Shown in pieces: positions 33,844-56,155 of a DNA stretch of 64,000 bases. Position 1 is the stretch's first letter. The number at the start of each line of letters is the position of its first letter. Source of the stretch: Minisyncoccia bacterium (GTDB lineage: Bacteria; Patescibacteriota; Minisyncoccia; Phycocordibacterales; UBA9973); the NCBI GenBank assembly GCA_965656375.1, contig CBFHKH010000001.1, positions 514,845 through 578,844 on the forward strand. Direction: 5' to 3'. Under the pieces are notes generated by a model. It ran no database searches. It was not told where the DNA came from and saw only the letters and a list, made by a program, of their open reading frames with translations. The translations under genes and the position numbers were made by a program.

Positions 33844-33864
33844 ACCCTATGATATAATCAGCCC

Positions 33865-34230: not shown

Positions 34231-34232
34231 AA

Positions 34233-34260
34233 CCCTGCTTTGCAGGGTTTTATTTTAGAA
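34233..34260 (+). terminator. rho-independent terminator
   Basis: AACCCTGC-tttg-CAGGGTT followed by TTATTTT. Confidence 0.65.
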
Positions 34261-34274
34261 TTACCTCTATGGTA

Positions 34275-34458
34275 TACTTTCTTTATGAAAGTTGAGAACA
34301 AAAGAAAAGCGATTATCTTACTCCTTACTCTAATCGCCATCGGCGGCATTGTCATGTATGGCGGAGAGCAACCTCCACGCAGACAGACAGAGACAAGCAC
34401 TATTCCTAAAATTAAGGGTCCAACAACTCCTCCACCTGGCTATGAAGCTCCACGATAA
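34275..34458 (+). CDS. small membrane protein (about 60 aa)
   Basis: MKVENKRKAIILLLTLIAIGGIVMYGG... with a single TM; weak call. Confidence 0.3.
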
Positions 34459-36622: not shown

Positions 36623-36641
36623 GCCTTATTTTACAAGGTAT

Positions 36642-36670
36642 TTTACCTTGACAAGAACGTGTATTTATGA
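36642..36670 (+). promoter_or_regulatory. sigma70-like promoter (TTGACA-17-TAAAAT) for the 36747 gene
   Basis: TTGACAagaacgtgtatttatgaTAAAAT, followed by AATTAGCTAATT palindromic sites at 36667..36696. Confidence 0.45.
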
Positions 36671-36746
36671 TAAAATATACTTAAGGTTATTAGCTAGACC
36701 TGATAATTAGCTAATTCAAAAAATTCTTCATTTAAAATTTAAGAAA

Positions 36747-37427
36747 ATGTCACAGTTCAGCTACAAACAAAGCCCAAGCGGCTCTCTTCTGGTAAGAGTT
36801 AAAGCGTTTACAACATTCACTGTTGAAGTAACTTATAAAGGTTACTGGTTACCTACCCCGGAGGAACTTGAAGGGAAACTACGTCCTGAAAAGGATTTCT
36901 CTTCTTCCAAAGGTAAAACAATTGAACGTGTAAACATACACATGTACAACAGGGTACGAGCATTGGTAAGGTATCTTACCGAAGACCTAAGTTTAACGAT
37001 CAATTCTGCAAGTATCAATGCGGAAAAGATCAAAACGAACGCCGGCAATGCTCTGTACAGAGCCTGGTTTGGAAGTGATAAAGAAGAAGCATGTTACTTC
37101 TATTTATCACAATTTCCTAAACGAAAAGTATACAGGTATCGTACATCTACCAATGAAATTAATTTCAGTTCCCTGATGACCCGCGCACAGTGGGTAGAAT
37201 TAAGGGAAATGATTTTAAAAGCTAAGGAAGAGTATAAAGTGATCCCGGTAACAGACAAAGACGAAAAAACTGCCGTTATGAATGCATTCTTCTACTCCCT
37301 TGCTTTGAAGAAAGTCAAAGAAGCGAGCGTGTTGGATTACAAAAAGAATTCAGCAAGAAAAAACGAAGATGTCGCTAAACCAACAGTTAAAAAATCTGCT
37401 CCAAAAAAGGCAGTAGCAAAAAAGTAA
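36747..37427 (+). CDS. hypothetical protein with histone-H1-like Lys/Ala-rich C-terminal tail
   Basis: 226 aa ending ...KPTVKKSAPKKAVAKK. Confidence 0.5.
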   Translation: MSQFSYKQSPSGSLLVRVKAFTTFTVEVTYKGYWLPTPEELEGKLRPEKDFSSSKGKTIERVNIHMYNRVRALVRYLTEDLSLTINSASINAEKIKTNAGNALYRAWFGSDKEEACYFYLSQFPKRKVYRYRTSTNEINFSSLMTRAQWVELREMILKAKEEYKVIPVTDKDEKTAVMNAFFYSLALKKVKEASVLDYKKNSARKNEDVAKPTVKKSAPKKAVAKK

Positions 37428-37502
37428 GTTTGGTACTAAAAATTACAAAGTTCCCTGCGCGTTATAAACGAGCAGGGAACTTTTTCGTATAAATAGTCTT
37501 TC

Positions 37503-40500
37503 TTACTTATTATCTTTTTCTTTTATACCACGTATTTGTTTTGCAAACTCTGCTTCCATAACTACAATTGAGTCCAACAAGAATGCTTTTATGTCTTTAT
37601 CTTTATTCTCAGGAATTTCTGTATATTCACGATATTTTTCATCTATATACGCCTTTTCAGGATCTCCTGTCTTAAGCGTAAAGTAACCCTTAAAATTAAA
37701 GTATCTTTCTACTCCCTTTCGATACGATTTCATTAATCGTGGGTCACTCATTACTCGATCGACAAGTTCTTTTGTAAGAGCAGTGTTTTCTCTGAGTTCT
37801 TCAAGTGTGACTTTTGTTTGCTTTTTCTTTACCTCATCGTGTGCATGCAATAAGGCAGACATGAATTCCTTCATTGACTGATATCTATCCTTTGGTTCAG
37901 GACTCATGCCTTTTTTGATTACTTCCTTGATTGGAGATGGGACTGTACCCGGGAACCTCATTTTTCCTGATAAATGAATTTTTTTGTATTCTTCCATTCG
38001 TTCAGATGCTTTCATATCCTTAGTTTCCTTTTCAATATCGTGAGGCCACTTATTTGTGATAAACCTATACAAGTTAGCTGAAGCTGCATAGACATCAACT
38101 GTTTTATCGAAACTTTTCTTTGCCTCAAATAATTCTGGGGCCATAGTAAATCTATTTCCACGAGCATAATCTCGCATTGATGTTTTTTGTGAACCTTGAA
38201 CAATAGCTGCACCATCAAGATCTGTTATTTTCAAATTATTTCTACTTAAGATTATATTACTTGGAGAAATATCTACATTAATTACACCCGCATCGTTGAG
38301 TGAATCAACTGCTTGAGATGTTTTCATAGTTGTCGCGATTGAATCATCAAGAGACAATCTTCTATTATTTAAATATGTTTGAAGATCCATATCTCCTGCT
38401 TCATATACTCTGTATGTTTTACCGTTTACTTCAAAAGTATCCATTGGTAATAATACATTTCGATTCTTATATCCCTTCTTTTTCAAGAAAGATTCAGGCG
38501 TATTATCTCCCCAGTAATGAGATTCCTTTAGTCCATTGAAATAATCTGTGTCTATCTCTTTTATAACTAAAAGTTTGTCTTGTCCTGGCTTATAACCCAA
38601 AGAAACCTTTCCTGTTTCAGTATTAGATAGTACAAAGTCTTTTGAGATTATATATGCACCTACACTTTCTTTATTTTCTGAATTTATAACTTCATTTACG
38701 TTTTTAACCCTTGGCTTTGTATCATAACCTACTATTACTTCATCAGAAAAATTATTTAACTGTTGCGGCAAATTGGAAGCAGGTTGTTGCCGTATCTTTC
38801 TAAGTTCTTCGATTGCTTCAGGTTTTCCTGAGCGTGCATCACGCATTAATTTCCCTTCAACTTGATATCGCTTGAGTCCATCTAGAAGAGGTCTCATCTT
38901 CGTTATGACCATATCGCCTTTACTATCGAGTTTATATTTAATTCCAAGCCAGCCTATTGCTTTGCGATAATAAGGACTATCCTTTCCAATTTTTTCACCT
39001 GCTTCCCAACTATCTAGAGTTCGATTTATGATGTATTCGAATGTTTTTTTCAATTTTTCCTGAGTTTCCAGATCATCATAGTCTATGGCATCACCGTCTT
39101 CCATTGTTAGCTTTCGAATTTCATCGTCAAACGCACTGAATCCTTTGTCCCACTGCTCAACAGGGGCAAGGCCTGATTTAAACGCATCAATAGCTCGACG
39201 AGACGAGGTAAAGAGTCGTGTAGTAGTTCCAGCAAAACCAAGTGCTTTTTTATTATCACCTCTTGCACTTATTATTGCTTGTCCAATAGAGATATCCTCT
39301 CCACCCTGGAGGTTGTCTATATAGCCACCAATACCCGCAAACATACTTGATCTGTAGGCAGAGTTAGCTCCACTTGAAACCATACTGTTCGTTCTATGAC
39401 GACCGATAACACTGAGATACTGGAAGAGTCTCGTTCCTATATGGACGCCTGGGTACTTCTGGTATGACTCTGGATCCCAATCAAGCTGACCAAGGAGTGC
39501 ATCAACTTCTGGATTCTCTTCAAACTTATCGATAAATGTTTGGATATATCTTGGATCAATACCTTTATTGTCAGCGTCATTACTTACCATTATCAAGTCT
39601 GGTGCGTCTTTACCTCTTTCGTGCTGGCGTACGAGTGTTGCATCTGAAAGTATCTTTCTGATTCTTCCGATTTTTGCTTCATCATTTGGCAATGCTTCAT
39701 ACATGACTCTGACATTCATGTCAGGATAGTCAGTTTTAAACTTTTCGATCGCAGCCATCGTCTCATCTGCATTCAACGGATTGCCATCCTTATCATTCTC
39801 GGGATGATTCACATAGAGAACAATTTCAAAATCTTCTGGCTTAGCAGTTTGGTAGGTATAATTCTTTAACGATTCGTAGATATTATTTCCCTCTTGGTGA
39901 CCTGCGACAGGGATACAGATAGAAATCTTGCAGTCCTTGCCCATCTTTTCTGTTGATTGCGCGAGTTTCTCTATTCTCTCTCTGTATTCTTTATCTTGCT
40001 TTTCTAGATAAAGAGCAATTTCTTCAAAGTGATCCAATTTTGCGTTTGGATTTTCTTTCAAAGTCTTTGATCTCAACTTTTCGAATAATGCTAATTTCTC
40101 TGCAGGAGTAGCACCACCAGCGTAATTTAAATAGTATTCTATTTTGTTATTAACCGGAACGATCTCTGCAGCCTTAGGCTTTTTGTATCCGAGCGGTTCA
40201 AGTGGAGTACGAGGAACAAGGGGTATAAAGTATGGCGGTTCAGTATCAATTGGGATCTCGAGAGTGTTTATCGGGATCTCTTTTGGACCAGGGACAGTAA
40301 TCGGACCGTGGTCAGGACCTTCGTACGTAGCAAGTTCTCTGACATGCAGACGTCCATCTGCATCTGTACCGAATGTCTCAGAGACTTCGGCAAAGCGTCC
40401 TTGGAATACGGCATGACCTTTATCATCTACACTAAAGAATAATTTTCCTACCTCACTATTTGGATCGATAATAGCGTTACCGTTCGCATCTATATCAACT

Positions 40501-42716
40501 TCGAATGGATGCATCTGAGTATCTCTCGTTAGTGAGAGGAACATCTTGAGTCCACCATTTTTGACTTTTTCTTGAGCATCCACTGAAAGACTATCATGGA
40601 ATGAACCACCTTTTGTCATATGAGAAACATTGAACACAATCTTGCCATCAGCATTGACCCCTGTATTATTCTCTCCGCCCCACCAGAGTTTCAATTCATT
40701 CTTATCAAAAACTGGCTTTGGGGTATCGTTGTCATACCATCCGTCACGAGCTATGTGTGTAGTCTGGTCTGGATGAGAATCTATATATTCATTCGGATTC
40801 ATTGTCGTATCTCCTGCTCCTTCAATCAAAGATGTTTCATTATTAGCAATAATTCCATCTTCCCCAAGTCTATTGATGGACGCTTGATCCAAAGCACCGT
40901 TTGCATCTGTATGGAGTTCTATATGATCAGAGATGACATCATCACCACGCATAATGTTGAAAGTACCATCCCCATTATCTATCATCGTTGTTCCCTCTGG
41001 AAGCTTGAAGTGGCTTGGTATATCAAAACTCTTACTAGTAAGAATTTGGTCCTGCGCATTCTCCATAGAGATATGCTGGTTACCTGAAAGGAGATGATCT
41101 AATGGAGTCTGTACATGATTTGATGTACCTTCCCCTGTTATGCGATGATATATTCCTTCGAAAACTCCTTCTTTATGTCCACCCCACAGTCCATCAGCAA
41201 GAGCAATACTTTCTTGCACTGCAGCTCCTATAGTTACACCCATGAGTACAGTTTTACCCATCTTGAGCGCAGCACGGCGCAATTTTAAATTGCTGAACGC
41301 TTTATCTTGTTTTGTGATGCCCTTTTCACCGCCAAGGAATGCTTTTTCTGTAGTATCAACTTGTTTTGCTAAATAAGACTCAAAGGTTTCTCCATCTGGT
41401 AAACCATCTTTCAATGTAGCATTTACTTGTTTCGCTAACTCAACTTTTGCACGAGCAAGCAAGATAACCATTTCAGTGTGTTCTTTTTCAACATTTGCAG
41501 GGTTTGAATATCGAATGAGATCGATTTTCTTTTGGCTTGCAAGTGACTCACGAGCTTCGATATTGCCAATGTGACCTAAAACTGACTCTAATTCACTTTG
41601 AGAGATTTGCTTTGCTACATCATTACCATCTTCATCTTTTGTAAAAAGTGATTCTCGGAGTGCCTTCATTAATACTTCTGCACTTTCTGTCTGATATGCA
41701 TATTTCTCCATCGATTCACGACGTGGGCTGTCTGCTTCTATCACACCGCCTTTTGCCATTTCACGGCCGTGCTGTCTTCGCTCTTCAGCAAGGCGCTGCG
41801 ATTCATTTGCAGCGGCAAGTACACCAGATGCAACTGCCGTACCTCCAAATGTCACCATGTGTGAGACTTTGCTTTTCATGAACATCTTTCCTGTCCCTGC
41901 TGCTACAGTATAGGCAAGAGCAACCGCTGTCGATAATGTCGCAGGATTGATGAATCTTCCAATCTTAGTTTTTTTGATTCCGGTGACAGTCTTGTCGATC
42001 CAGTTACTTTTCGCTTCTGTCTTAATACTACTTTTTGCCTTGCCGACAATTACATTGAAATCAAGATCAAGCTCTTCGAGCTTTGCCCCGTGTTCTACAG
42101 CAAGTTTGGCATTTTTAGCCATTTCAAAAAGATTACTTGCGTATATATTTGAACCCGTAACAAAAGAGTCTCCTATTGTATTAAAAATTTTAACCTTTTC
42201 TGAATTGAATGAATCTTCATTGATATCACCTTTTGCGTAATCAGAAATAAGTTTCTTTATATCTGCTTTTGTCTGGGCTGTCTTTGGATCAGTTTCTTCG
42301 AGTGTTTTTTTCTCTTCTCCAACTTTCTTGTTAACTGCTTCTTCATATTCTGACGCAAAGCGCTCTGTGATAGCTTCCATCGCTCTATCATGGGATTGTT
42401 TATCTTTCTCTACTGCAGAGTAAATATTATCTGACTTGAAGATTTCATCTCGAGCTTTGTCTAATGCTTTCTGTCTATAATACCCATCCATGTAGGTATG
42501 CTTCCAAAGTTTTTTCCAGAAACCAGCTTTGCCTTTTGCTTCAGTCATTGCTGCATCAGCAGCATCGCGAGCTTCCATTTCGGCCAAATGAGTCGCATCA
42601 ACAATTACGAGCTTTTGTTTTAAAGCTTCTAATGCTTTATTTTTTATTTCCTCACTTGTTTGCGGATTTTCAATTGTATCCGGCTTACTATATAGAGTAG
42701 GTGATTCAATTGGCAT
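37503..42716 (-). CDS. giant membrane protein (1737 aa): N-terminal coiled-coil/TM region, GT-A glycosyltransferase-like domain, C-terminal eukaryotic-like protein kinase domain
   Basis: GT2-like start ISICIPVAG...NIYESL and DxD motif SNDADNKG. Kinase subdomains are present: LLVIKEI (VAIK-like), VINVDISPSNIIL (HRDxKPxN-like), KITDLDG (DFG-like), TMAPELF (APE), DVYAASANLY. Confidence 0.8.
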   Translation of the reverse strand: MPIESPTLYSKPDTIENPQTSEEIKNKALEALKQKLVIVDATHLAEMEARDAADAAMTEAKGKAGFWKKLWKHTYMDGYYRQKALDKARDEIFKSDNIYSAVEKDKQSHDRAMEAITERFASEYEEAVNKKVGEEKKTLEETDPKTAQTKADIKKLISDYAKGDINEDSFNSEKVKIFNTIGDSFVTGSNIYASNLFEMAKNAKLAVEHGAKLEELDLDFNVIVGKAKSSIKTEAKSNWIDKTVTGIKKTKIGRFINPATLSTAVALAYTVAAGTGKMFMKSKVSHMVTFGGTAVASGVLAAANESQRLAEERRQHGREMAKGGVIEADSPRRESMEKYAYQTESAEVLMKALRESLFTKDEDGNDVAKQISQSELESVLGHIGNIEARESLASQKKIDLIRYSNPANVEKEHTEMVILLARAKVELAKQVNATLKDGLPDGETFESYLAKQVDTTEKAFLGGEKGITKQDKAFSNLKLRRAALKMGKTVLMGVTIGAAVQESIALADGLWGGHKEGVFEGIYHRITGEGTSNHVQTPLDHLLSGNQHISMENAQDQILTSKSFDIPSHFKLPEGTTMIDNGDGTFNIMRGDDVISDHIELHTDANGALDQASINRLGEDGIIANNETSLIEGAGDTTMNPNEYIDSHPDQTTHIARDGWYDNDTPKPVFDKNELKLWWGGENNTGVNADGKIVFNVSHMTKGGSFHDSLSVDAQEKVKNGGLKMFLSLTRDTQMHPFEVDIDANGNAIIDPNSEVGKLFFSVDDKGHAVFQGRFAEVSETFGTDADGRLHVRELATYEGPDHGPITVPGPKEIPINTLEIPIDTEPPYFIPLVPRTPLEPLGYKKPKAAEIVPVNNKIEYYLNYAGGATPAEKLALFEKLRSKTLKENPNAKLDHFEEIALYLEKQDKEYRERIEKLAQSTEKMGKDCKISICIPVAGHQEGNNIYESLKNYTYQTAKPEDFEIVLYVNHPENDKDGNPLNADETMAAIEKFKTDYPDMNVRVMYEALPNDEAKIGRIRKILSDATLVRQHERGKDAPDLIMVSNDADNKGIDPRYIQTFIDKFEENPEVDALLGQLDWDPESYQKYPGVHIGTRLFQYLSVIGRHRTNSMVSSGANSAYRSSMFAGIGGYIDNLQGGEDISIGQAIISARGDNKKALGFAGTTTRLFTSSRRAIDAFKSGLAPVEQWDKGFSAFDDEIRKLTMEDGDAIDYDDLETQEKLKKTFEYIINRTLDSWEAGEKIGKDSPYYRKAIGWLGIKYKLDSKGDMVITKMRPLLDGLKRYQVEGKLMRDARSGKPEAIEELRKIRQQPASNLPQQLNNFSDEVIVGYDTKPRVKNVNEVINSENKESVGAYIISKDFVLSNTETGKVSLGYKPGQDKLLVIKEIDTDYFNGLKESHYWGDNTPESFLKKKGYKNRNVLLPMDTFEVNGKTYRVYEAGDMDLQTYLNNRRLSLDDSIATTMKTSQAVDSLNDAGVINVDISPSNIILSRNNLKITDLDGAAIVQGSQKTSMRDYARGNRFTMAPELFEAKKSFDKTVDVYAASANLYRFITNKWPHDIEKETKDMKASERMEEYKKIHLSGKMRFPGTVPSPIKEVIKKGMSPEPKDRYQSMKEFMSALLHAHDEVKKKQTKVTLEELRENTALTKELVDRVMSDPRLMKSYRKGVERYFNFKGYFTLKTGDPEKAYIDEKYREYTEIPENKDKDIKAFLLDSIVVMEAEFAKQIRGIKEKDNK

Positions 42717-42723
42717 ATATGTA

Positions 42724-43029
42724 TTAACCTAAATATGTTTGTCTAAAAAGTATAAGTTCACTTGCAATTAGTTCGGCAAGATCTGGAATATGTGCTGCAC
42801 AAAATGCCTGTACCTCTTCATCTGTTCCCTTCTCTGATATTTCAACAAAAGCATCCATTTGATCCTCTGGGATATTTTTGACAATTACTGCGTTTATTCT
42901 ATCTTCGATACGACTCTGAAGATCAAGTTTGATCTGAAGTATAACTTCTGGCGCAAGACCCTCAAACTCTCTTTTTTCACTGACGATCTTGTCGATGAAC
43001 GTACTAAGATCTAAGTTTTTGTCATTCAT
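42724..43029 (-). CDS. small acidic hypothetical protein upstream of the giant gene
   Basis: 101-aa ORF in the same orientation with an 8-bp gap to the giant gene. Confidence 0.4.
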   Translation of the reverse strand: MNDKNLDLSTFIDKIVSEKREFEGLAPEVILQIKLDLQSRIEDRINAVIVKNIPEDQMDAFVEISEKGTDEEVQAFCAAHIPDLAELIASELILFRQTYLG

Positions 43030-43149
43030 TTTTTGTATTTTTAGTTAGTAAAAGTAACATCTTTATTATATCTTCTCGGTATTATAAGGTCAATAAAACA
43101 AGCTTCTTAAACCAAAATTAACTATTTATAATTATACAACCATCGAAGT

Positions 43150-43179
43150 ATAATTGTCAAGTAATATATTGACAATTAT
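43150..43179. promoter_or_regulatory. 30-bp palindromic operator-like site in a divergent intergenic region
   Basis: ATAATTGTCAA-gtaatata-TTGACAATTAT, perfect 11-bp arms; the right arm contains TTGACA. Confidence 0.5.
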
Positions 43180-43352
43180 GAGTAAATGTGCTACCATATC
43201 CCTAATGCCCTTCATGGGTCTAAATATCGAGCTCTTTGACAATGACAGGGTTAATTATGGATTGAGAAATTGAATCTTTCTTTGAGTAAACGTAACGTTT
43301 CCTTGAAAAAAGATAGATTTCTTAATTTATTTTAAACCAAAAAAACAGAAAA

Positions 43353-44471
43353 ATGAAAAAAACAAAGAAAGCCGCAACGGCTTCACAACAGACACCCCCT
43401 TTAAACAGGGCGCAAACTCTGGAAGTATTTAATTCCAGGAAGAAAGCCATTAACGACAGGATGGCAATACATGTTGAAGACATCACCAAGCTTAAAAAAC
43501 CTTTACCGGAAATGAGCTTGGAGTTGTACGGACACAAAGAATACGACCTTAAAAAGGGGTACAAATTTCTTTTAACGATTATTGTTTTACTGGTAGTTTC
43601 AGCCTTAGAAATTCCTTTGAATGCAACCGGACTTGAAATGCTGGGCCGCCCTCAAATGACGACCACATTCATGGCAATAGGCCTTGCATGTGCGCTAGGC
43701 TTACTTGCTGAAGGCGCTGGTTTTTCATTCAGAAGAGGAGTTGTTAAAAAAAGCTTTATTGGAATTTTTGGTGCACTATTTTGTGCCGGCGTAGCCTTAA
43801 CCATCATCTATTGGTTATCAGAATTTCGAGTGGCATATTTCCATCGTATGAAGTTTAACAAAGAGGACATCAGCATAACCGGGCAGGTGATATTTTCAAT
43901 TGCCGTTTGGTGTGCAGGTGTAATTGGAGTTTACTTTTTAACCAGTGGTGTAAAAAACTTACATCTGGAAAAAGTATTTAACAGCAAGCGTAAATCCATC
44001 AGAATTTTACAGAAAAAACATGCAGCTTTGGAAGCCGAAAAAGATAAACTTAAAGCTGAAAATGCTGTAAATATGGTTGCTGCAGAAGCATACGAAACAA
44101 ACATTAAGCATGAAAAAACAAAAGCTGAAAATTTGAAAAATGAGCTAGCAATAGCAACATTAAAAGACAAGGAAAATGCAGCAATGCAGCAGACAGCGCA
44201 GGAGAAAAACAAAATCACTCAGCAGAAAAATGCCTTTTATGAAAAACACACAGAATTATTAGGTATTAAGACCCGCGTTATGGAAATTGCGGGTAAGATT
44301 GAAGACAAAAGTGAGTTAAACCTCAATGAAGACTATGTATCATCAATGGACCAGGCTACTACCTTGATCGAAGAGATGAAGGAACTGGCATCCGTGGATA
44401 TACCTGGTACAAAAGAAAGCTTCGAACAAGCTGAACAAATTTTTAACTCATTAAAAAACCTCGCATCATGA
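43353..44471 (+). CDS. membrane protein (N-terminal cytoplasmic region, 4 TM, long C-terminal coiled coil)
   Basis: 372 aa with hydrophobic helices at about 70-210 and a Lys/Glu/Ala-rich heptad region at 215-372; higher GC and different codon usage than neighbours; no Shine-Dalgarno sequence. Confidence 0.5.
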   Translation: MKKTKKAATASQQTPPLNRAQTLEVFNSRKKAINDRMAIHVEDITKLKKPLPEMSLELYGHKEYDLKKGYKFLLTIIVLLVVSALEIPLNATGLEMLGRPQMTTTFMAIGLACALGLLAEGAGFSFRRGVVKKSFIGIFGALFCAGVALTIIYWLSEFRVAYFHRMKFNKEDISITGQVIFSIAVWCAGVIGVYFLTSGVKNLHLEKVFNSKRKSIRILQKKHAALEAEKDKLKAENAVNMVAAEAYETNIKHEKTKAENLKNELAIATLKDKENAAMQQTAQEKNKITQQKNAFYEKHTELLGIKTRVMEIAGKIEDKSELNLNEDYVSSMDQATTLIEEMKELASVDIPGTKESFEQAEQIFNSLKNLAS

Positions 44472-45163
44472 AAAGTGTAATTATCATGGCACTGGTGGCT
44501 GCAACAGCTACCCTGCTATCCTGCGGATCAGAAACACCAAAAACAAAAAATGATATCTACATTCTTGTAGATAATACCGACAAGACAAAATACTCCGGTG
44601 ATATTGTTTCATCAGATGCTATATTGGACCTTGTTGGCAAGAAGGGTACTGTGAAATTCAAAGCCCTTACTGGTGTTTCCCTGAATGAAGAATCGGAAAT
44701 TTCCTTACTGGTAGATGGATCCACTAGCGTTCTGCGCCAGGATCAGATCGACCCGTTCGTTGAAAAGTTGGACTCCCTTAAGAAAAAATACCTCGGTGTT
44801 ACAACTGAGTATAAAAAATCAAGCTTATGGGAACCGGTATGCCAAGCTCTGAATGAGCTTAGTGCATCCGCAGTTACTGAGCCCGGCGAAAAAACGATGA
44901 TCATATTATCGGATATGCTGGAAAACTCAGACTACTGCAACTTTTATAAGGATATGTCGATAGAAACAGTGAAGGAACAGTTGGCAAAATCAGGCTCAGC
45001 ACTTCCCAAAAATCCAAAGGTTAAGGTAATCATCATCTTTAATCCCAACCAGAACATTGAAAAAGAACGGCTGCACAAGAAAGCCATGAATTACTGGGAA
45101 AAGCTTTTTAAAGAAGCAGGGATCAAATTTGTTGTAAAAGCCAATCTTGGCGAAAAAGTGTAG
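44468..45163 (+). CDS. lipoprotein
   Basis: Signal peptide plus lipobox ATLLSCGS; its ATG overlaps the upstream stop (ATGA). Confidence 0.5.
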   Translation: MKSVIIMALVAATATLLSCGSETPKTKNDIYILVDNTDKTKYSGDIVSSDAILDLVGKKGTVKFKALTGVSLNEESEISLLVDGSTSVLRQDQIDPFVEKLDSLKKKYLGVTTEYKKSSLWEPVCQALNELSASAVTEPGEKTMIILSDMLENSDYCNFYKDMSIETVKEQLAKSGSALPKNPKVKVIIIFNPNQNIEKERLHKKAMNYWEKLFKEAGIKFVVKANLGEKV

Positions 45164-45165
45164 TC

Positions 45166-45660
45166 ATGGGAAACAAGGAAGCAAAAGAGCAGTTAAAAGG
45201 TTTTCTTTTAAAACTCAAGGTATTTAAAATGTACCTCGAACAAACCAAGAGTAAATTCACTGAAATAGCGTATTATGAAAAATTTATTTTTGGCTTTCAT
45301 CCTCCGAGCCCCATTCCTATTAATATATCAGAAGAGTTTTGGAATAGTTTGAGTTCTACTCAGAAGTTGTTACTTGAATTCAGGAAATCATTCAATGAAA
45401 ATGATCTTCCCGAAGACATACGGCAAGCTTTTGTGAATATGACGATTACTATAGTTCAAAATAAATTTGATGTTGATAAAGGAGTGATCAAGATTGGTGG
45501 ATTGGGGAAACCATGGTGGAAAGAAGTTGGGTATGTGAAAAAGAATTGGGGACCGATGGAATATGATGTAAAAGTTATATATTCACAAGAAGCATATTCG
45601 AATATTAGCTACTACTTTGTATTGATCGGCCAGATAGAGCAACTGGAAGCCATGTGTTAA
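45166..45660 (+). CDS. hypothetical cytoplasmic protein
   Basis: 164 aa, starting 2 nt after the lipoprotein stop; no recognisable motifs. Confidence 0.4.
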   Translation: MGNKEAKEQLKGFLLKLKVFKMYLEQTKSKFTEIAYYEKFIFGFHPPSPIPINISEEFWNSLSSTQKLLLEFRKSFNENDLPEDIRQAFVNMTITIVQNKFDVDKGVIKIGGLGKPWWKEVGYVKKNWGPMEYDVKVIYSQEAYSNISYYFVLIGQIEQLEAMC

Positions 45661-45750
45661 AAACATTTTCTGCTTTAACTGTCATTACGTAATTATTAAG
45701 ATCTGGAATTAAAACCTCCAGATCTTTTTTTATGTCTAGATTTGTGATAA

Positions 45751-45915
45751 CGCCTTGGCACGTCTGCCTCCAGCTTGGACATGATGTCGTCACGAATAAT
45801 TCCTCGCTGTCGCTGCGGAATTTTCTCGATCCTGTTTGGACTCGTCGTCACAAGTATTTTTCTGGTGAAAAATCTCGCGACCCCGCCTCGGCACGTCTGC
45901 CTCCGGCTTGGACAT
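45751..45915. repeat. degenerate tandem copies of an approx 55-bp repeat family
   Basis: cgccttggcacgtctgcctccagcttggacat (45751-82) and cgcctcggcacgtctgcctccggcttggacat (45884-915), plus a related copy ctgctgaaaaattccgcgaccccgtctcggctcgtcagcctccgacc at 49681-49740. Confidence 0.6.
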
Positions 45916-45962
45916 TTAAAAAAACGTAATGGGTAATTACGTTTTTTTAAATGTCCACCCGC
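45913..45962. terminator. long perfect hairpin (22-bp stem) acting as a bidirectional terminator next to the tRNA 3' end
   Basis: TGGACATTTAAAAAAACGTAAT-gggta-ATTACGTTTTTTTAAATGTCCA. Confidence 0.6.
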
Positions 45963-46027
45963 TTGGATTCGAACCAAGGACCCCAGAGGTATAAGCTCTG
46001 TGCTCTAACCAACTGAGCTACGGGTGG
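45952..46027 (-). tRNA. tRNA-Ile with apparent anticodon UAU
   Basis: CCACCCG-TA-GCTC-AGTTGGTTA-GAGC-A-CAGAG-CTTATAC-CTCTG-GGGTC-CTTGG-TTCGAAT-CCAAG-CGGGTGG-A; positions 34-36 read TAT. Confidence 0.7.
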
Positions 46028-47989: not shown

Positions 47990-48059
47990 GAATAAGGGGG
48001 TAAATAGAAATAAGCCCGACTTTTAAAAATCGGGCTTATTAAAAATATATTGAAAAAGT

Positions 48060-48776
48060 TTAAAATCCTCTACGCCGGTATGGCTTAAGTGCTTGCGATT
48101 CTGCTGGATATTTTTTCTTTAACCATTTCATGAGAAAGTGCGTTAAGATACTGTAAAGTATAAGTATTGTAATGGTATCTGAAATAAAACTTGGCAAATA
48201 TTCCCAAGATACCCAATTATAAAGATTATATCCAAAAAGGTTGTCAACGAATAAAGCAGCTAAAATAACTATGGAAAAAATTAAAAAGAATATAATTCTT
48301 GTAGGGACACATGGTGCATATTCGACATGACCATGTGTTTTGTATTCCAAGCGTACTGCCAGCCATCGTAAGAAGAATGCTACCAGCATCCACATGAACA
48401 AATAGATAACATATGTATTTGGAACTCTTTGCTCTACACCAACTGAATTTTCAGGGTATATATACGGAGTGTTGTTATCTGATGAAAATGCAAGGCTTTT
48501 CTTTGTAATCTCTGGTATTTTACGGATCCAAAATAATCCTAATGGAAACATATTCGGTTTAAAAACCCAAACAGTAGTAACTGATGAACCGGTTTGCAAT
48601 ATCTTTTTAGCCTCTTCTAAAGTAGAAGTGCCAATTCCAGTTAGAAGTGTATCTTTTATAAGTGTATATTTTACCATTACACTTCCTTCCTTTTTAAGGT
48701 ATGTAGAATCTTTTTGTTGTGCATTGCTTGAAAAGAAACCAAGTAATACGATAACCACTAATAGAGTCTTTTTCAT
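48060..48776 (-). CDS. membrane protein with Bacteroidetes-style signal peptide
   Basis: MKKTLLVVIVLLGFFSSNAQ... followed by several TM helices; unknown family. Confidence 0.45.
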   Translation of the reverse strand: MKKTLLVVIVLLGFFSSNAQQKDSTYLKKEGSVMVKYTLIKDTLLTGIGTSTLEEAKKILQTGSSVTTVWVFKPNMFPLGLFWIRKIPEITKKSLAFSSDNNTPYIYPENSVGVEQRVPNTYVIYLFMWMLVAFFLRWLAVRLEYKTHGHVEYAPCVPTRIIFFLIFSIVILAALFVDNLFGYNLYNWVSWEYLPSFISDTITILILYSILTHFLMKWLKKKYPAESQALKPYRRRGF

Positions 48777-49002
48777 GTGTATAAAGTTTTAGTTTTTGAG
48801 TTTAGGTGATCTCTACTCCCCCGATGCGAGGAACACAGATCACCCAACAAGAAAAATTAAAACTATGTGTCAAAGAAGAATTATAGTGAAACACTATAAC
48901 ACCTAGGTATGTTTGTCAAGTTAAGGCACCTGGCCATTTGATTATTTTTAGAATACTTGTATGATGGGATCAAAACAACACTCACCAATAAAATTGAATA
49001 TT

Positions 49003-49608
49003 ATGGAAGAGAATAAAAACTCAACTAATATCGAGAAAGAGTTTAAAAATCTGATCTATGTAAATGAGTATGTAAAGACTCTCTCTTATCTAAAACTAAA
49101 ACCTCTCTTCGGGGTTATGCAATGTAATTCTTTTTTTGATAATGAACAATTAAGCTTACATAAAAAGAACGCGACGTTGCGCATTCGATTCAGTAATGGA
49201 GTTCGTGAACTGACTTTGAAGGAAGATGCTGATGATGGCAGACTGGAGACAAATTATAGTCCGTTATCCGACAAACAATTTGCAGATCTTATAATTGAAG
49301 GGATCATTCCAAAAAGTGATATTTTGACACGACTTCAACACTCAGGAGTAAAGGGTCCATATTGGTATCAAGGTGAGATGATCACCAATCGAATAGAGAT
49401 ATCATACAAAGGATGCAAACTTGCCATCGACCATGCTAAATATTTGGGCACGGAAGATTATGAGATTGAGGTTGAAAAGGATAACGAGAAAGTTAATCAT
49501 AAAAAAGTAGCAAAAAATCTACTTGAAAACCTTGGTATACCTGTACGAAAAGTAAAAGGTAAGAGGAAACGTTTCTTTGAGTTTAAATTACGAACCGAAC
49601 TAGTTTAA
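49003..49608 (+). CDS. CYTH-domain protein (triphosphate tunnel metalloenzyme family)
   Basis: N-terminal NIEKEFK (ExExK signature) and about 200 aa; start placed at MEENKN. Confidence 0.55.
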   Translation: MEENKNSTNIEKEFKNLIYVNEYVKTLSYLKLKPLFGVMQCNSFFDNEQLSLHKKNATLRIRFSNGVRELTLKEDADDGRLETNYSPLSDKQFADLIIEGIIPKSDILTRLQHSGVKGPYWYQGEMITNRIEISYKGCKLAIDHAKYLGTEDYEIEVEKDNEKVNHKKVAKNLLENLGIPVRKVKGKRKRFFEFKLRTELV

Positions 49609-49626
49609 GAAATGATAATAGAGAGG

Positions 49627-49660
49627 AAGGCAAATGCTTTCCTCTTTTTTTTGTGGAACT
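49627..49660 (+). terminator. rho-independent terminator
   Basis: GAGGAAGGCA-aa-TGCTTTCCTC followed by T8. Confidence 0.6.
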
Positions 49661-49672
49661 GGGCGGAGTTGA
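49652..49672. repeat. 21-bp direct repeat duplicating the tmRNA 3' end (distal att site of an ssrA-integrated element)
   Basis: tgtggaactgggcggagttga is identical at 49652-49672 and at 52419-52439, the latter being the 3' end of ssrA. Confidence 0.7.
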
Positions 49673-50212
49673 GTCACTGATATTTTTCTGCTGAAAAATT
49701 CCGCGACCCCGTCTCGGCTCGTCAGCCTCCGACCGTTCAACTCCTATCCCTACTTACCCCATATACCCAAAAAGCCTGCCATCCGAGGCAGCCTTTTATT
49801 GGTATTGTGGACTACCCCAGATTAAGGTACGAACACAAAAAATCATCAAATTCCTCTCCCTTACAAAAACACAAACCCATTGCTTGGGATGAAATCGAGA
49901 AAGAATTGTTCGTCTTAGAAGAGATTCTAAAATCTGATTCTTCTGAAGATGATCCTTTTACTTCTTCTGTATTTCCTCCATAGGCTTTTCAGGTTTGTTT
50001 TCGAGCTGCCAGAAGAAGGCCTCTACAACAATATCAGCTAAGATGCCTATTTGCTCATCTTCGGTGATATCCGGATTTCGTAGCCTAGCTATCATATCTT
50101 CTAGCTCATATCTTACAACTGTATCCATATCCACCGGTTATACCAGAATTTGCAGCATATGCAAATTCCCCGCCCTTACTAGCTGTATCATTAATTTTTA
50201 TAATTACACTAT

Positions 50213-50453
50213 GAACAAACGAAAAGAGATTGTTCCAAACAATTTGAAAGAGTATCGATTGAAAGCAGGGCTAACACAGAAGGAAGTTGCGAAATTACTT
50301 TGCTTACAATGTGAAGATCGCCTGTCTCATTGGGAAAAAGGACAAGCTGTTCCTTCTATCAAAAATATTATTAAGCTTTGTGGTATCTATCAAACCACTT
50401 TTGAAGAAGTATTTAATGTTCTTAAAAAACAAAATCCAAAACTAAAAATATAA
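50213..50453 (+). CDS. XRE-family HTH regulator
   Basis: MNKRKEIVPNNLKEYRLKAGLTQKEVAKLL...; about 80 aa HTH_XRE. Confidence 0.6.
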
Positions 50454-50754
50454 TCGAAAGGATAATAGGAATAGCCTTTAAACAAAAAATTATTGTAAAA
50501 TATTTTTTAACTCCCGGCTGATTCAAAAAATCTATGCGAAGATTAGCCGGATTGAGAAAAGTTTCTGGAGTAAGAACGCTAAAAACAGATGCATATACGC
50601 CGAATATTGCAGAGAAGGTTGCATATTCCTTATTTAAACGAATGGCTGCAATAATAGTGACTGCTAATGGAATCAATGAGAGAAAGCAAATTTCAAGGAA
50701 CTTAAAAAATCCTTTCTTTGCTTGAGCTTCTGAGAGTGGTGGAGTATATGACAT
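50422..50754 (-). CDS. small membrane protein
   Basis: 110 aa with two or three TM helices; weak call. Confidence 0.3.
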   Translation of the reverse strand: MSYTPPLSEAQAKKGFFKFLEICFLSLIPLAVTIIAAIRLNKEYATFSAIFGVYASVFSVLTPETFLNPANLRIDFLNQPGVKKYFTIIFCLKAIPIILSIIFLVLDFVF

Positions 50755-50763
50755 AAAATATTT

Positions 50764-51594
50764 TTATCTTGATAGCTGAGTAATTGCAGCCTGCAAAACC
50801 TGCCAGCAGATTTTTGCAGTATGTTCATCAGGATTAAAATTCGATGACATTTGTGCATATGGGTGAATGTAATTCCTAAAATCACGCAAGGCATGGCTAA
50901 ACTTCTTCACATCTTCACCAAGTAAATTAATATCCCTAGCAACATTTATAAAATCATTTAAAGCCCAATTTGGAAATTGCTTTACAGTTCCTCCTCTATC
51001 CCTTGGGCTAAGAGAACTTCGATTAAAATTTTGAGGATCCTTCGTTGCTATTCCAAGTAAAATTCCTTCCAATGTACTCCCGCAAAGAAAAATAACGGCT
51101 AAAGATGCTTTAGCATTGAGGCATTTAGCAATCTCATCCATTCTCTGTTCAAGAACACTGGTTATGCTACTGTCCAATCCTAGTTTATGAATAGAAACAT
51201 TCTTAAATTCTTTGCTAATAAAATCCTCTTCTTTCATCTCCGGGGTTTGGGTTTTAATACCAAGCAATTTATTAGCCACTGACCTGCCTGCCACCACTAA
51301 ATCATCGGGGAAATCTGACTTTTTTAAATTGCCTAATAGGATTTGATTTTCAATATACTCAATAAGCTTCGAAATCGATTTTCCAACCAAGGGATCATCA
51401 GCAACTTTCCAAAAGCCCCTGAGTCGATTAGCTTTGGAGCCACTCGCATAATTATATTTGTCATCATAAATATTTATACCAACATCGTCCTGGAAAAACT
51501 CTCCCATTGTTCTATCAGTAAAATTTAAAACATAGCCAGTCATTTGGAAGAGTTTCTCTAATATCTGCTTTTCGTTGGTACCAAGATTTGCCAT
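50764..51594 (-). CDS. hypothetical protein with a possible C-terminal HEPN-type Rx4-6H motif
   Basis: 276 aa; C-terminal ALRDFRNYIHPYAQ; no other recognisable motif. Confidence 0.35.
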   Translation of the reverse strand: MANLGTNEKQILEKLFQMTGYVLNFTDRTMGEFFQDDVGINIYDDKYNYASGSKANRLRGFWKVADDPLVGKSISKLIEYIENQILLGNLKKSDFPDDLVVAGRSVANKLLGIKTQTPEMKEEDFISKEFKNVSIHKLGLDSSITSVLEQRMDEIAKCLNAKASLAVIFLCGSTLEGILLGIATKDPQNFNRSSLSPRDRGGTVKQFPNWALNDFINVARDINLLGEDVKKFSHALRDFRNYIHPYAQMSSNFNPDEHTAKICWQVLQAAITQLSR

Positions 51595-51599
51595 TATGC

Positions 51600-52034
51600 T
51601 TAGTTTAATAAAGAGTCAAAATCAACAATTGCTTTTCTAAATATGTTTTCAATAGCCTTTACCGTCTCCTCATTCACGCTGGCTGGGCTGCTCGCCACCC
51701 ACTTTGCCAAGTTATACAATTCTTGGGGAGATAACGATAACCATTTTTCGTTCTTCCCCAGGAATATAAGAAGAGACATGACAGCCACACGCTTATTCCC
51801 ATTCTGAAACGGATGATTTTTAATCATGAGATAAAACAAGATTGCAGCTTTACTAATCAATCCTTTATACAAATCTCCTTTGTATGTCTGGAACGGTGCC
51901 AGGATGCATTGTTCAAGGGCCCGAGGGTAGCGAGTTGAAAACTCAGGAATTGGCTCTCCCCATTCTAAATATTTTCGAGCAAGTTCATGTGCAGAATATT
52001 CGATTTCTTCCATTGTCAGCCGTTTGGTTTTCAT
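51600..52034 (-). CDS. doc: Doc/Fic family toxin (death-on-curing type)
   Basis: Motif HPFQNGNKR matches the Doc-type Fic motif HxFx(D/N)GNKR; 144 aa. Confidence 0.75.
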   Translation of the reverse strand: MKTKRLTMEEIEYSAHELARKYLEWGEPIPEFSTRYPRALEQCILAPFQTYKGDLYKGLISKAAILFYLMIKNHPFQNGNKRVAVMSLLIFLGKNEKWLSLSPQELYNLAKWVASSPASVNEETVKAIENIFRKAIVDFDSLLN

Positions 52035-52036
52035 AC

Positions 52037-52306
52037 CTATTCTCGGCCAAGCATACGAATTGTTTCTCCGTAGTCTTTAATGGTTTTATCTACTAAGGCT
52101 TTTATTTCCTGTTTATCAATTTCTGTGAGTGGTCGGGTATCAAGATGCTTAATGACTTCCTCATGAGGAATAACATAATTACGACCAATCTTATGTGCCT
52201 TAATTGATCCATCTTTGATCCAGCGAAAAACTGTAACCCGGGTTACATCGAGAATTTTAGCGACTTCAGAAGTTGAAAAATAATTTTGACCATGTAACGA
52301 TTCCAT
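52037..52306 (-). CDS. HTH (excisionase/AlpA-like) DNA-binding protein, probable antitoxin partner of Doc
   Basis: 89 aa; STSEVAKILDVTRVTVFRWIKDG is a MerR/excisionase-type HTH; 3-nt gap to doc. Confidence 0.55.
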   Translation of the reverse strand: MESLHGQNYFSTSEVAKILDVTRVTVFRWIKDGSIKAHKIGRNYVIPHEEVIKHLDTRPLTEIDKQEIKALVDKTIKDYGETIRMLGRE

Positions 52307-52418
52307 AGGCCTATGGTAACATATGTTACATAACTATGCAAGAGTTGTTACATTTCCTATTTATTAGGATGCTATGAAATAAGCCTTTTTTAGAAATATA
52401 ACTTGTTATTTCTAACAA

Positions 52419-56124: not shown

Positions 56125-56155
56125 AAATCCCTTCAATTGAAGGGATTTTTTATTG
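56125..56155. terminator. bidirectional terminator
   Basis: AAATCCCTTCAATTGAAGGGATTT with flanking T/A runs. Confidence 0.65.

Follow-up and report, generated by a model that had tools for sequence, protein, structure and literature searches.

A conserved three-gene operon with a structured leader RNA, encoding a putative envelope module of Patescibacteria

The window analysed here, a 64-kb stretch of the genome of a Minisyncoccia bacterium, contains three adjacent genes, designated A, B and C (the trio), which are divergent from a DUF5663 gene and followed by a tRNA-Ile. The features of the locus are as follows.

37503-42716, minus strand: gene of a giant 1737-aa protein with a kinase domain at residues 1367-1615 (Pfam Pkinase)
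42724-43029, minus strand: DUF5663 gene, 101 aa, divergent from the trio (PF18908, E=1.2e-6)
43131-43160, minus strand: sigma-70-type promoter of the DUF5663 gene, TTGACA-18-TATAAT, 12/12 match (consensus scan)
43150-43179, no strand: perfect 11-N8-11 palindrome, ATAATTGTCAA-N8-TTGACAATTAT, with two back-to-back -35 boxes
43169-43197, plus strand: trio promoter, TTGACA-17-(TGC)TACCAT, extended -10, 10/12 match (consensus scan)
43232-43258, plus strand: conserved single-stranded leader box, CTCTTTGACAATGACAGGGTTAATTAT
43262-43325, plus strand: covarying leader hairpin, extended by RNAfold to 43257-43331
43334-43352, plus strand: A-rich translation-initiation tract lacking a Shine-Dalgarno sequence (from the sequence)
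43353-44471, plus strand: gene A (open reading frame, 372 aa)
44468-45163, plus strand: gene B (open reading frame, 231 aa)
45166-45660, plus strand: gene C (open reading frame, 164 aa)
45698-45731, plus strand: intrinsic terminator of the operon, AAGATCTGGA, 9-nt loop, TCCAGATCTT, T7 run (from the sequence; stem predicted)
45751-45782 and 45884-45915, no strand: two 32-nt direct repeats, 94% identical (repeat search)
45909-45957, no strand: perfect 22-nt inverted repeat (5-nt loop) that adjoins and partly covers the tRNA 3' end
45953-46027, minus strand: tRNA-Ile, anticodon TAT (ARAGORN; Rfam tRNA, 70 bits)

Genes A, B and C form a real and tightly coupled operon whose cistrons are translationally coupled. 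The positions of the open reading frames place an ATGA overlap at the A/B junction and a gap of 2 nt between B and C, which bears out the co-translation proposed in a preliminary description of this DNA, and the trio recurs elsewhere as a unit. An A-rich tract lies 5' of the gene A ATG in all of the loci compared (7/7). The trio indeed lacks Shine-Dalgarno sequences, as that description had pointed out, but this absence does not distinguish it, since only 3 of the 55 window genes have one. The operon terminator was not picked up by the consensus scan, probably because that scan admits loops of 3-8 nt and the loop here has 9 nt. On the 3' side, the repeat-rich stretch and the tRNA-Ile are both present as described. 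In contrast, the pilus genes that were said to flank the trio are distant: the nearest PilM/B/T/C genes lie 28 kb off, and the left neighbours are the DUF5663 gene and the gene of the 1737-aa kinase-domain protein. A literature search on DUF5663 found nothing.

The trio had been considered foreign on account of its composition. The GC contents of A, B and C are 0.386, 0.407 and 0.343, compared with a gene mean of 0.406 ± 0.037 (z = -0.54, 0.02 and -1.70); that is, about or below the window mean rather than visibly higher, as had been claimed, and the ftsH gene to the right, at 0.44, is above all three. The supposed difference in codon usage was not recovered either: GC, GC3 (z = 0, 1.2 and -0.28) and codon z-scores all remain at |z|<2, the synonymous-codon likelihood falls inside the range of the other window genes, and the tetranucleotide distance lies at the 91st percentile. 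Therefore, the trio is not a compositional outlier.

These results bear on the proposal that the trio is a horizontally acquired island at the tRNA-Ile, where a membrane effector, a lipoprotein sensor and a soluble partner, under the control of a dedicated repressor at the palindrome, would make up a defence or conflict system. The tetranucleotide distance, at the 91st percentile, could be read in its favour, as could the synteny downstream of the trio, which is unlike that of its relatives, and the direct repeats adjoining the tRNA-Ile, whose core resembles the 3' end of this tRNA. The repeat core, TCCAAGCNGGNGG, has three copies in the window, all near the tRNA-Ile and on the tRNA strand. 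Nevertheless, the window search located tRNA-3'-like cores only at 45767-45779 and 45900-45912, where they bracket at most 200 nt beside the tRNA, and the window has no such copy on the left side of the trio; an att-bounded island was thus rejected. The neighbours that were scanned, up to about 10 kb from the trio, also include no integrase or transposase, the cassette has no regulator gene, PADLOC gave nothing for 14 family members or neighbours, and no relatives of the trio were retrieved from IMG/VR, GenBank phages or PLSDB plasmids. What had looked like a typical island junction is therefore not one: the trio is not bounded by the tRNA, lacks a far-border repeat and a nearby integrase, and holds a conserved position in its relatives. 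We consider an acquired defence island very unlikely.

Among the 11 patescibacterial loci of our small sample (which includes five others), the A-B-C order is the same, with spacings of at most 6 nt (the window, L004, L005, L006, L007, L008, L009, L137, L139, L140 and the fragment L003), so that the trio co-occurs as a unit in at least 10 patescibacterial loci. The family comprises about 30 clusters at 50% identity with E<1e-20, while a pattern-based scan of GTDB species representatives returned six loci; it appears to be limited to a subset of Patescibacteria. In several loci, the trio lies between a ThrRS-L32-NusB-RNaseIII-SMC block and an RNaseR-S16-KH-TrmD block (SMC, then A-B-C, then RNase R), and in L009 it is inverted in place between these housekeeping blocks. 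Neither the window nor L137 shows the adjacency to SMC and RNase R; both retain, beside the trio, only the pair formed by the DUF5663 gene and the giant-protein gene. This pair adjoins A-B-C in the window, L007, L009 and L137, and the N-terminal 860-1360 aa of the giant protein are conserved with its partners in L009 and L137. The synteny of trio, DUF5663 gene and giant-protein gene with L007 and L009, together with the one core position occupied in distant Patescibacteria, speaks against an acquired island, and the recurrence of the same flanking housekeeping genes indicates vertical inheritance. That the trio is native to the patescibacterial genome, rather than imported, forms part of the explanation that we favour below.

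The genomic context also raises the possibility that the trio is a housekeeping factor of the envelope or cell cycle, for instance an anchor or scaffold for segregation, division or envelope biogenesis, with the copies on mobile elements being secondary. It adjoins SMC, RNase III and RNase R genes across Saccharibacteria, Paceibacterota-type and other Patescibacteria, and this arrangement survives the in-place inversion. However, adjacency to a large conserved block may simply mirror vertical gene order, it is lost in two of the loci, the trio is equipped with a promoter, leader and terminator of its own, and the family appears restricted, as noted above. The strongly conserved transmembrane domain of protein A and its long cytoplasmic coiled coil, a feature typical of scaffolds, are points in its favour. 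On balance, this explanation seems improbable to us.

The preliminary description had reported a perfect 11-N8-11 palindrome over a TTGACA box, which we confirmed at 43150-43179. This palindrome is unique in the 64-kb window and was not matched in any of 100 shuffles (0/100). Its left arm is the -35 box of the DUF5663 promoter, and the trio promoter, from which transcription is predicted to start near 43204, uses the opposite one. A TTGAC[AT]-N17/18-TGC-TAnnAT promoter architecture is also found in L004, L005, L006, L007, L009 and L137; an xGTCAA-N8-TTGACA core recurs at the trio promoters of L004 and L006, and those of L005, L007, L009 and L137 carry palindromes of other forms. The simpler reading is that the palindrome consists of the two back-to-back -35 hexamers of divergent promoters, and it may double as an operator.

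The stronger claim that a dedicated dimeric repressor uses the palindrome as its operator, blocking the trio promoter by covering the -35 box, stands in part, as the dyad does overlap that box. The perfect symmetry of 11+11 nt extends past the hexamers, palindromy at the -35 region recurs in L004, L005 and L006, with weaker symmetry in L007, L009 and L137, and four of the six TTGACAAT octamers of the window lie within 370 nt of the palindrome. In contrast, both arms are already accounted for as divergent -35 boxes by the 12/12 and 10/12 matches, and A or AT follows most of the promoter-like TTGACA sites of the window. The geometry moreover varies by locus (GTCAA-N8-TTGAC versus TTGAC-N4-5-GTCAA), and in L004 the palindrome forms a GC-rich hairpin that leads into a stretch of T residues and resembles a terminator for the upstream SMC gene. 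No gene for a repressor could be recognised, and neither A, B and C nor the DUF5663 protein matched a DNA-binding family. A dedicated operator is possible but doubtful.

Between the trio promoter and gene A lies a leader of about 150 nt. Its box is near-identical in six loci whose proteins share only 25-40% identity; the L137 copy has diverged further. The hairpin that follows has a fold z-score of -3.7, and RNAalifold recovered 18 pairs, nine of which show compensatory changes. The paired fraction of cells is 90.4% versus 73.7% in shuffles (0/500), and slid controls reach at most 58%. A covariance model of the leader found exactly one copy per trio locus, only upstream of gene A. A pattern scan for the leader box in the metagenome collection returned 120 loci, which we regard as chance matches because none encodes A, B or C. 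No Rfam family matched 43232-43331, either at gathering thresholds or at E<=1 (4227 families of Rfam 15). The leader resembles the cis-regulatory 5' leaders of Rfam (riboswitches and protein-binding leaders) in being linked to a single operon, in combining an unpaired conserved box with a covarying stem, and in its position between promoter and start codon, but it differs from them in that it consists of one hairpin only and shows neither an obvious ligand pocket nor a consistent terminator. Two alternatives were discarded for this element. A leader peptide was rejected since neither the frame nor the length is conserved (the ATG of the box opens MTGLIMD* in the window and MTG* in L004), and a terminator or attenuator is not general, since only about three of the seven loci have a U-run after the hairpin.

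Protein A, sketched earlier as a polytopic membrane protein with a coiled-coil tail, is borne out as such by its predicted structure, in which four transmembrane helices (at about residues 69-97, 101-131, 135-165 and 175-199) are followed by a long helical tail. This tail is predicted to comprise a single helix at 203-318 (about 116 residues) and then two short helices. The topology would be N-in/C-in, leaving the 203-318 helix in the cytoplasm. The model was built from 17 sequences and has a pLDDT of 78, exceeding 90 across most of the long helix; beyond about residue 320 it must be interpreted with caution, because the C-terminal tail was misaligned onto the B domain of the fusion proteins described below. 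The transmembrane region is nearly invariant among homologues that are 68% identical overall, and a motif of the outer loop is conserved (E86-I-P-x-N90...G-x-E-x-x-G-R). Fold searches with A retrieved generic helical bundles only, and its alignment found no relative in the metagenome collection.

Protein B is a lipoprotein, as had been proposed: its signal peptide and lipobox read MKSVIIMALVAATATLLS-C19 (LLSC), in agreement with the pattern [LVI][ASTVI][GAS]C, and the cysteine is invariant, in a lipobox-like context, in all seven homologues (7/7). The model of B, of medium confidence (three input sequences, pLDDT 63), is an alpha/beta fold with the strand and helix order of von Willebrand factor A (vWA) domains, and it superposes on those of BatB (3ibs), RrgA, GBS104 and PilB. 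An extracytoplasmic vWA-like domain is therefore moderately supported, even though no Pfam vWA model matches any of the seven members at E<=1 and neither NCBIfam nor PDB sequences gave a match. Conserved residues include D35-x-T37-x-K39, T86 and S148-D149-M-x-E152; among them, D35-N-T37-x-K39, T86 and D149 are invariant in the seven sequences, and a D-x-T-[DE] motif is kept in the distant homologues inspected. Compared with the MIDAS metal site, DxSxS...T...D, the corresponding DxTxK has its third serine replaced by lysine in the patescibacterial sequences, so the metal-site motif appears partly preserved and metal binding is putative. B thus shares its predicted fold with envelope vWA proteins, such as BatA/BatB of Bacteroides and the tip adhesins RrgA, GBS104 and PilB of S. 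sanguinis, and like them is predicted to be membrane-anchored and extracytoplasmic, with an acidic/Thr cluster where the metal-ion site sits. Unlike them, it has no MoxR ATPase, TPR or pilin partner; its partner is instead the 4-TM coiled-coil protein, which is sometimes fused to it.

Protein C, expected to be soluble, indeed has no signal peptide or transmembrane segment, and it carries conserved FNENDLP and YSQxAY motifs. It was found only in the patescibacterial trios and is absent beside the A-B pairs of other lineages. C has no Pfam, NCBIfam or PDB match, and its profile search against PDB was empty. Likewise, no Pfam, PADLOC or PHROG family matched A, B or C, in line with the earlier statement that the three proteins could not be recognised. 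The Tn-seq paper on Southlakia mentions neither a vWA domain nor a lipoprotein.

Relatives outside Patescibacteria are informative about A and B. About 15 proteins of 500-755 aa carry B at their C-terminus, and the A profile matches the N-terminal part of those tested (P0033, E=1.6e-21; P0043, E=1.8e-13), with a hydrophobic, lipobox-like segment between the two parts. Other non-patescibacterial loci encode separate A-like proteins beside B (E 1e-11 to 1e-13). That A and B are a single polypeptide in other lineages suggests that they act as one trans-membrane unit. In five of five non-patescibacterial contexts, A-B lies directly upstream of the genes of a type IV coupling protein (T4CP), a Mob accessory protein and a relaxase. 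These relatives reside on integrative mobilizable elements with integrases, one of them beside a CBASS system, which counts in favour of the acquired defence island weighed above, although PADLOC gave no match for the suggested defence or conflict role. However, no transfer genes adjoin the trio in the window or in any other patescibacterial locus, so the mobile-element context may not apply there.

In the F plasmid, TraS is an inner-membrane entry-exclusion protein and TraT a surface-exclusion lipoprotein, and the gene order is traS-traT-traD...traI (PMC12658005). A-B likewise pairs a polytopic membrane protein with a lipoprotein, in that order, and outside Patescibacteria it occupies the same position relative to the coupling protein and relaxase genes as traS-traT does in F. 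The window trio differs in not lying beside transfer genes and in having a third gene, C. Homology with TraS/TraT was rejected (hhalign probabilities of 1.8% and 4.7%, with only the lipoprotein signal peptide aligning). TraT is not known to be a vWA protein. Protein A also resembles ZorA of the Zorya system and similar defence proteins in the predicted succession of a polytopic membrane domain and a very long cytoplasmic helix; unlike ZorA, it has no MotA/ExbB-type domain, no PADLOC ZorA match and no ZorB-like partner. For A, B and C, as well as 10 of their relatives or neighbours, PADLOC-DB 2.0.0 gave nothing above noise level, the single weak ZorA match being that of a fusion relative (E=0.0013, sub-threshold), and homology with ZorA, DruC or UzuA was rejected. 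Matches of the fusions to tetraspanin, MARVEL and ABC2 families were below threshold, reflect their transmembrane composition and were discarded.

As a whole, these observations are best explained, in our judgement with somewhat better than even confidence, by a native operon, expressed by the route described here, that encodes a trans-envelope ligand-binding module. Transcription would proceed from the extended -10 sigma-70-type promoter at 43169-43197, through the leader, to the terminator at 45698-45731. A would span the membrane four times and project its C-terminal helix of about 116 residues into the cytoplasm, while B would be attached to the external face of the membrane by its lipid anchor and may contact A through the conserved outer loop. 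The two would constitute one trans-membrane unit; in the fusions, the cytoplasmic helix of A would join B through a fifth transmembrane segment. C could be a cytoplasmic accessory of the patescibacterial version, binding the cytoplasmic helices of A. The external vWA domain of B would bind a surface ligand, be it a protein or some component of the envelope, which could plausibly belong to the contact or transfer apparatus of another cell, and the bundle and coiled coil of A would pass ligand binding on to the cytoplasm. The module would thus most likely be a device of the contact, adhesion or exclusion type, and less likely an enzyme or a transporter, and the envelope role that the preliminary description had offered as one of its closing guesses holds.

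A bolder extension can be formulated, although we regard it as a long shot. A-B(-C) would be a new trans-envelope contact-control system, in which the vWA lipoprotein and its 4-TM partner recognise the pilus, transfer apparatus or surface of another cell. It would serve exclusion or gatekeeping on Bacteroidota-type mobilizable elements and would have been domesticated in Patescibacteria with C and the leader RNA, where it would govern attachment, or the exchange of DNA or protein, at the interface between epibiont and host.

The genomes of Patescibacteria are tiny, many of their envelope proteins lack characterisation, and the way in which they make contact with host cells and exploit them is poorly understood. 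In this context, our analysis corrects a false assignment of the trio to a foreign island, as neither the missing Shine-Dalgarno sequences nor the local GC content sets it apart, and defines a conserved three-protein envelope module that carries a recognisable, putatively extracellular, vWA binding fold. The dedicated structured leader RNA is present in no RNA-family library, and the natural A-B fusions are evidence that the two subunits act together. Finally, A and B reveal an unexpected evolutionary link between this patescibacterial module and the mobilization modules that mobile elements carry in other bacteria.

The three genes under study, encoding a predicted four-transmembrane protein (A), a lipoprotein (B) and a small soluble protein (C), form an operon that is native and translationally coupled and has a promoter, a leader and a terminator of its own. 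The reading frames of A and B overlap in ATGA, and 2 nt lie between those of B and C. In its anatomical part, the preliminary description was correct: these frames, the palindrome, the downstream repeats and the tRNA-Ile were all found as it had described them. The region comprises:

Left flank: DUF5663 gene, 1737-aa kinase-domain protein ("giant protein"), then RecG and a two-component pair
43160-131, - strand: promoter facing the DUF5663 gene, TTGACA-18-TATAAT (12/12 consensus); its -35 box is the left arm of the palindrome
43169-197, + strand: trio promoter, TTGACA-17-TGC-TACCAT; its -35 box is the right arm of the palindrome; predicted start of transcription ~43204
43262-43325: leader hairpin (fold z-score -3.7)
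43353-44471, + strand: gene A, ORF of 372 aa
44468-45163, + strand: gene B, ORF of 231 aa
45166-45660, + strand: gene C, ORF of 164 aa
45698-45731: hairpin-plus-T7 terminator, downstream of C
45751-45957 region: two direct repeats of 32 nt, 133 nt apart
Overlapping the 3' end of the minus-strand tRNA-Ile: perfect inverted repeat of 22 nt, running into the tRNA
45953-46027, - strand: tRNA-Ile(TAT)
Right flank: tRNA-Ile, FtsH, CYTH protein, HTH protein, Fic/Doc protein, tmRNA, SmpB

Word-indexed searches of 5.8 billion proteins retrieved one or two close relatives per trio protein, and further loci came from scanning GTDB species representatives for a pattern and from context look-ups. The A-B-C order was recovered in a Candidatus Paceibacterota MAG (L001/L004, 61-68% identity), in three Saccharibacteria MAGs (L005, L007 and L008), in two other Patescibacteria or uncultured MAGs (L006 and L009) and in the metagenomic contigs L003, L137/L138, L139 and L140, the more distant loci sharing just 25-41% protein identity with the window trio. 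Everywhere, the intercistronic spacing is <=6 nt or the genes overlap. A-B-C is a conserved unit that recurs in multiple Patescibacteria loci. These relatives and the gene content suggest that the window organism is itself a Patescibacterium. Gene B is found in two ORFs in L008 (617-1303), and its ORF end and tblastn extent disagree in L007 (4352-5065); these irregularities may reflect frameshifts or errors of assembly in the MAGs concerned.

The chromosomal position of the trio is also conserved. In L004, L005 and L006, it lies between the blocks ThrRS-L32-NusB/NUDIX-RNase III-SMC and RNase R-S16-KH-TrmD. The same two housekeeping blocks flank it in L009, where the trio is inverted in place and has a DUF5663/giant-protein pair beside it; L007 has the SMC block and this pair in common with L009. 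The idea that the trio is itself a housekeeping scaffold, linked to SMC or division, seems unlikely. The DUF5663/giant-protein pair adjoins the trio divergently in the window and in tandem downstream in L137, and it is a trio neighbour, in two arrangements, in 4 of ~8 informative loci. Conservation of the giant protein is confined to its N-terminal 860-1360 aa; the Ser/Thr kinase domain present in the window protein is absent from the L137 homologue. No publications were found on either gene of the pair.

The trio had been presented as compositionally foreign, with a higher GC content and a different codon usage than its flanks, which our measurements contradict. The GC contents of A, B and C are 0.386, 0.407 and 0.343 (window mean 0.406), corresponding to z-scores of -0.54, 0.02 and -1.70 against the 50 other genes, with GC3 z-scores of 0, 1.2 and -0.28. 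The synonymous-codon likelihood of the trio, computed from the rest of the window, does not leave the range covered by the other genes, its tetranucleotide distance is at the 91st percentile among equal-sized windows, and FtsH on the right flank is richer in GC (0.44). Nor do pilus genes flank the trio: the type IV pilus cluster lies at a distance of 28 kb, and the left side is occupied by the DUF5663 gene and the giant protein. The single chromosomal position across deeply diverged lineages, together with this ordinary composition, indicates that the trio is native to Patescibacteria and vertically inherited. Both observations contradict an acquired cassette, and a defence island of that kind appears quite improbable.

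An island junction had also been proposed at the tRNA-Ile. The repeats and the tRNA are indeed there. The 3'-end core of the tRNA, TCCAAGCNGGNGG, has three copies in the window, all on the tRNA strand: one is the tRNA itself, and the other two (45900-912 and 45767-779) lie within the 32-nt repeats of the 45751-45957 region (fold z=-7.4). These tRNA-3'-end-like copies bracket <=200 nt; there is no copy left of the trio anywhere in the window and no integrase among the scanned trio neighbours. The trio is not part of a tRNA-bounded island. The repeats themselves look like scars of past tRNA events, either att scars derived from the tRNA 3' end or a tiny repeat element. The tRNA carries the anticodon TAT (UAU) instead of belonging to the usual CAU-lysidine type. 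An independent assembly of identical sequence (L002, Logan ERR15116721 contig, ~33350-46020 of the window) confirms the left half, from the giant protein through DUF5663 to ABC; because it stops within the tRNA, the junction of the trio with tRNA-Ile/FtsH is without independent confirmation. Further right, a low-GC patch (48000-52400, 0.33-0.38) between FtsH and tmRNA, with genes for an unknown secreted or membrane protein (48060-48776), CYTH, HTH_3, an unknown 276-aa protein and Fic/Doc, looks more like accessory DNA than the trio does. A 972-aa protein (56150-59068, - strand) with an unusually high second-codon-position GC (0.52) contains a domain of the Peptidase_S74 (endosialidase chaperone) type, which phage tail fibres or self-cleaving surface fibres typically carry.

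The 323-nt spacer upstream of A contains a perfect 11-N8-11 palindrome, ATAATTGTCAA-N8-TTGACAATTAT (43150-43179), which overlaps a TTGACA box and occurs in a single copy in the window and 0 times in shuffles. Of its earlier reading as a dedicated repressor site, the dyad over the -35 box stands. Nevertheless, no regulator gene is apparent, and each arm can be read as the -35 box of one of the two divergent promoters. Because most TTGACA promoter-like sites in the window run on with A or AT, 7-8 of the 11 symmetric positions are explained in this way. An xGTCAA-N8-TTGACA core is likewise found at the trio promoters of L004 and L006; in L004, it lies inside a hairpin that is rich in GC, precedes a run of T and resembles a terminator for the SMC gene upstream; here, a perfect TATAAT is found 17 nt downstream. 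Other, partly imperfect palindromes cover the -35 box in L005, L007, L009 and L137. Since the arms double as -35 boxes and the palindrome forms vary among loci, operator function is possible but not required, and a true operator at the palindrome seems somewhat unlikely.

The trio lacks Shine-Dalgarno sequences, as had been observed, but this absence does not set it apart because SD-like motifs are present in just 3/55 window genes. A TAnnnT hexamer whose end lies 5-10 nt (mode 6 nt) from the start codon precedes 22/53 genes, versus 11% of random positions, often with a TGn extension (for example, starts 6943, 10286, 23532, 33106, 33865, 53281 and 54862). Judging from these hexamers and the rarity of SD motifs, leaderless or SD-independent initiation appears to be widespread in this genome. 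With many of its genes apparently leaderless, the ~150-nt structured, dedicated leader of the trio stands out as unusual. Each of the six relatives examined has a box related to GTTCTTTGA(C/A)AATGACGG(G)GTTAATTTT at 20-45 nt beyond the -10 element, with the greatest divergence in L137. A long hairpin comes next, variable in sequence with its pairing kept, and then an A-rich tract and the ATG. In a small sample of seven sequences, RNAalifold recovered 18 pairs, 9 of them with compensatory double changes, and 90.4% of alignment cells were paired versus 73.7% in shuffles (0/500 reaching the observed value) and at most 58% in slid controls. A covariance model retrieves a single copy in each trio locus, in every case upstream of A, with no match elsewhere in the window or in non-Patescibacteria loci, and the leader has no match in Rfam 15. 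It is a candidate new cis-regulatory RNA and may be a protein-binding site, C being one candidate binder.

The proteins had not been recognised previously, and A, B, C and all tested homologues gave nothing above noise against Pfam-A, NCBIfam, PADLOC and PHROGs; the B and C profiles had no significant match among PDB sequences. In agreement with a polytopic protein bearing a long tail, the model of A (pLDDT 78) consists of an N-terminal helix, four TM helices (~69-97, 101-131, 135-165 and 175-199), one ~116-residue helix (203-318) and two short helices. C, which has neither a signal peptide nor a TM segment and is soluble as proposed, conserves FNENDLP and YSQxAY motifs and has no detectable relatives outside trios. 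A vWA-like fold of B is moderately supported; this divergent fold is the sole recognisable part of the operon.

An exhaustive search of 1.84 billion cluster representatives with the B profile retrieved 210 clusters at E<=1e-3 and 35 at E<=1e-10. These are mostly stand-alone proteins of 225-255 aa, while ~15 are proteins of 500-755 aa with a C-terminal B. The N-terminal halves of the tested fusions match the A profile (P0033, E=1.6e-21; P0043, E=1.8e-13) and share its outer-loop motif; in these fusions, a hydrophobic, lipobox-like segment lies between the coiled coil of A and the B domain. In these other lineages, the two proteins are thus joined in one chain, and the layout fits the proposed topology, which places the coiled coil on the inner and the vWA domain on the outer side. 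Such natural fusions speak for A and B acting as one unit, and the two proteins probably form a complex.

Relatives of A-B also sit in mobilization modules. In all five examined contexts outside the Patescibacteria trio type (L133, L134, L136, L141/L142 and L143), a fusion or a pair of A-like (E 1e-11 to 1e-13 against the A profile) and B proteins lies beside a T4SS coupling protein (T4CP), a small Mob accessory protein and a relaxase; none of the five contains C. In four of them, the pair immediately precedes the transfer genes and is co-directional with them, the Mob genes of L134 being on the opposite strand. Integrases, a Fic protein and one CBASS system are found nearby; the latter (L136 11179-15451; SMODS, SAVED, bacterial HORMA, Cap8, AAA ATPase, with a Peptidase_S24 protein) adjoins the A-B, T4CP and relaxase module of this non-Patescibacteria mobile element. 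Por_Secre_tail and Arm-DNA-bind_5 neighbours suggest Bacteroidota hosts. The gene context of fusion P0033 (L130), from which transfer genes are absent, looks Patescibacterial. The placement of A-B in mobile elements parallels traS-traT-traD...traI of plasmid F, where TraS is an inner-membrane entry-exclusion protein and TraT a surface-exclusion lipoprotein (PMC12658005), although A-B have no homology to either.

Tentatively, the trio could be a ligand-binding trans-envelope module. At the outer face of the membrane, B would dock on the conserved outer loop of A (E86-N90, G-x-E-x-x-G-R) and bind a ligand via its acidic/Thr site; the four-helix bundle of A, together with A's cytoplasmic helix (~17 nm, as estimated from ~116 helical residues), would couple this binding to the cytoplasm, where C would bind. 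From the positional analogy alone, the module may serve to recognise or block the contact or transfer apparatus of another cell, and its site of action in epibiotic Patescibacteria may be the host interface; such an exclusion or contact-control role seems unlikely.

The feature is real but was mis-described as a foreign island: what it represents is an uncharacterised envelope operon that is conserved in its lineage, and the structural and evolutionary statements made here are very probably correct. The trio belongs to the broad kind of membrane-anchored vWA envelope modules, from which it differs by its unrecognised 4-TM coiled-coil partner, the extra subunit C, found only in Patescibacteria, and a leader RNA absent from Rfam. 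It overturns no expectations and is of moderate interest, offering testable leads for the envelope biology of Patescibacteria and for the accessory genes of Bacteroidota mobile elements.
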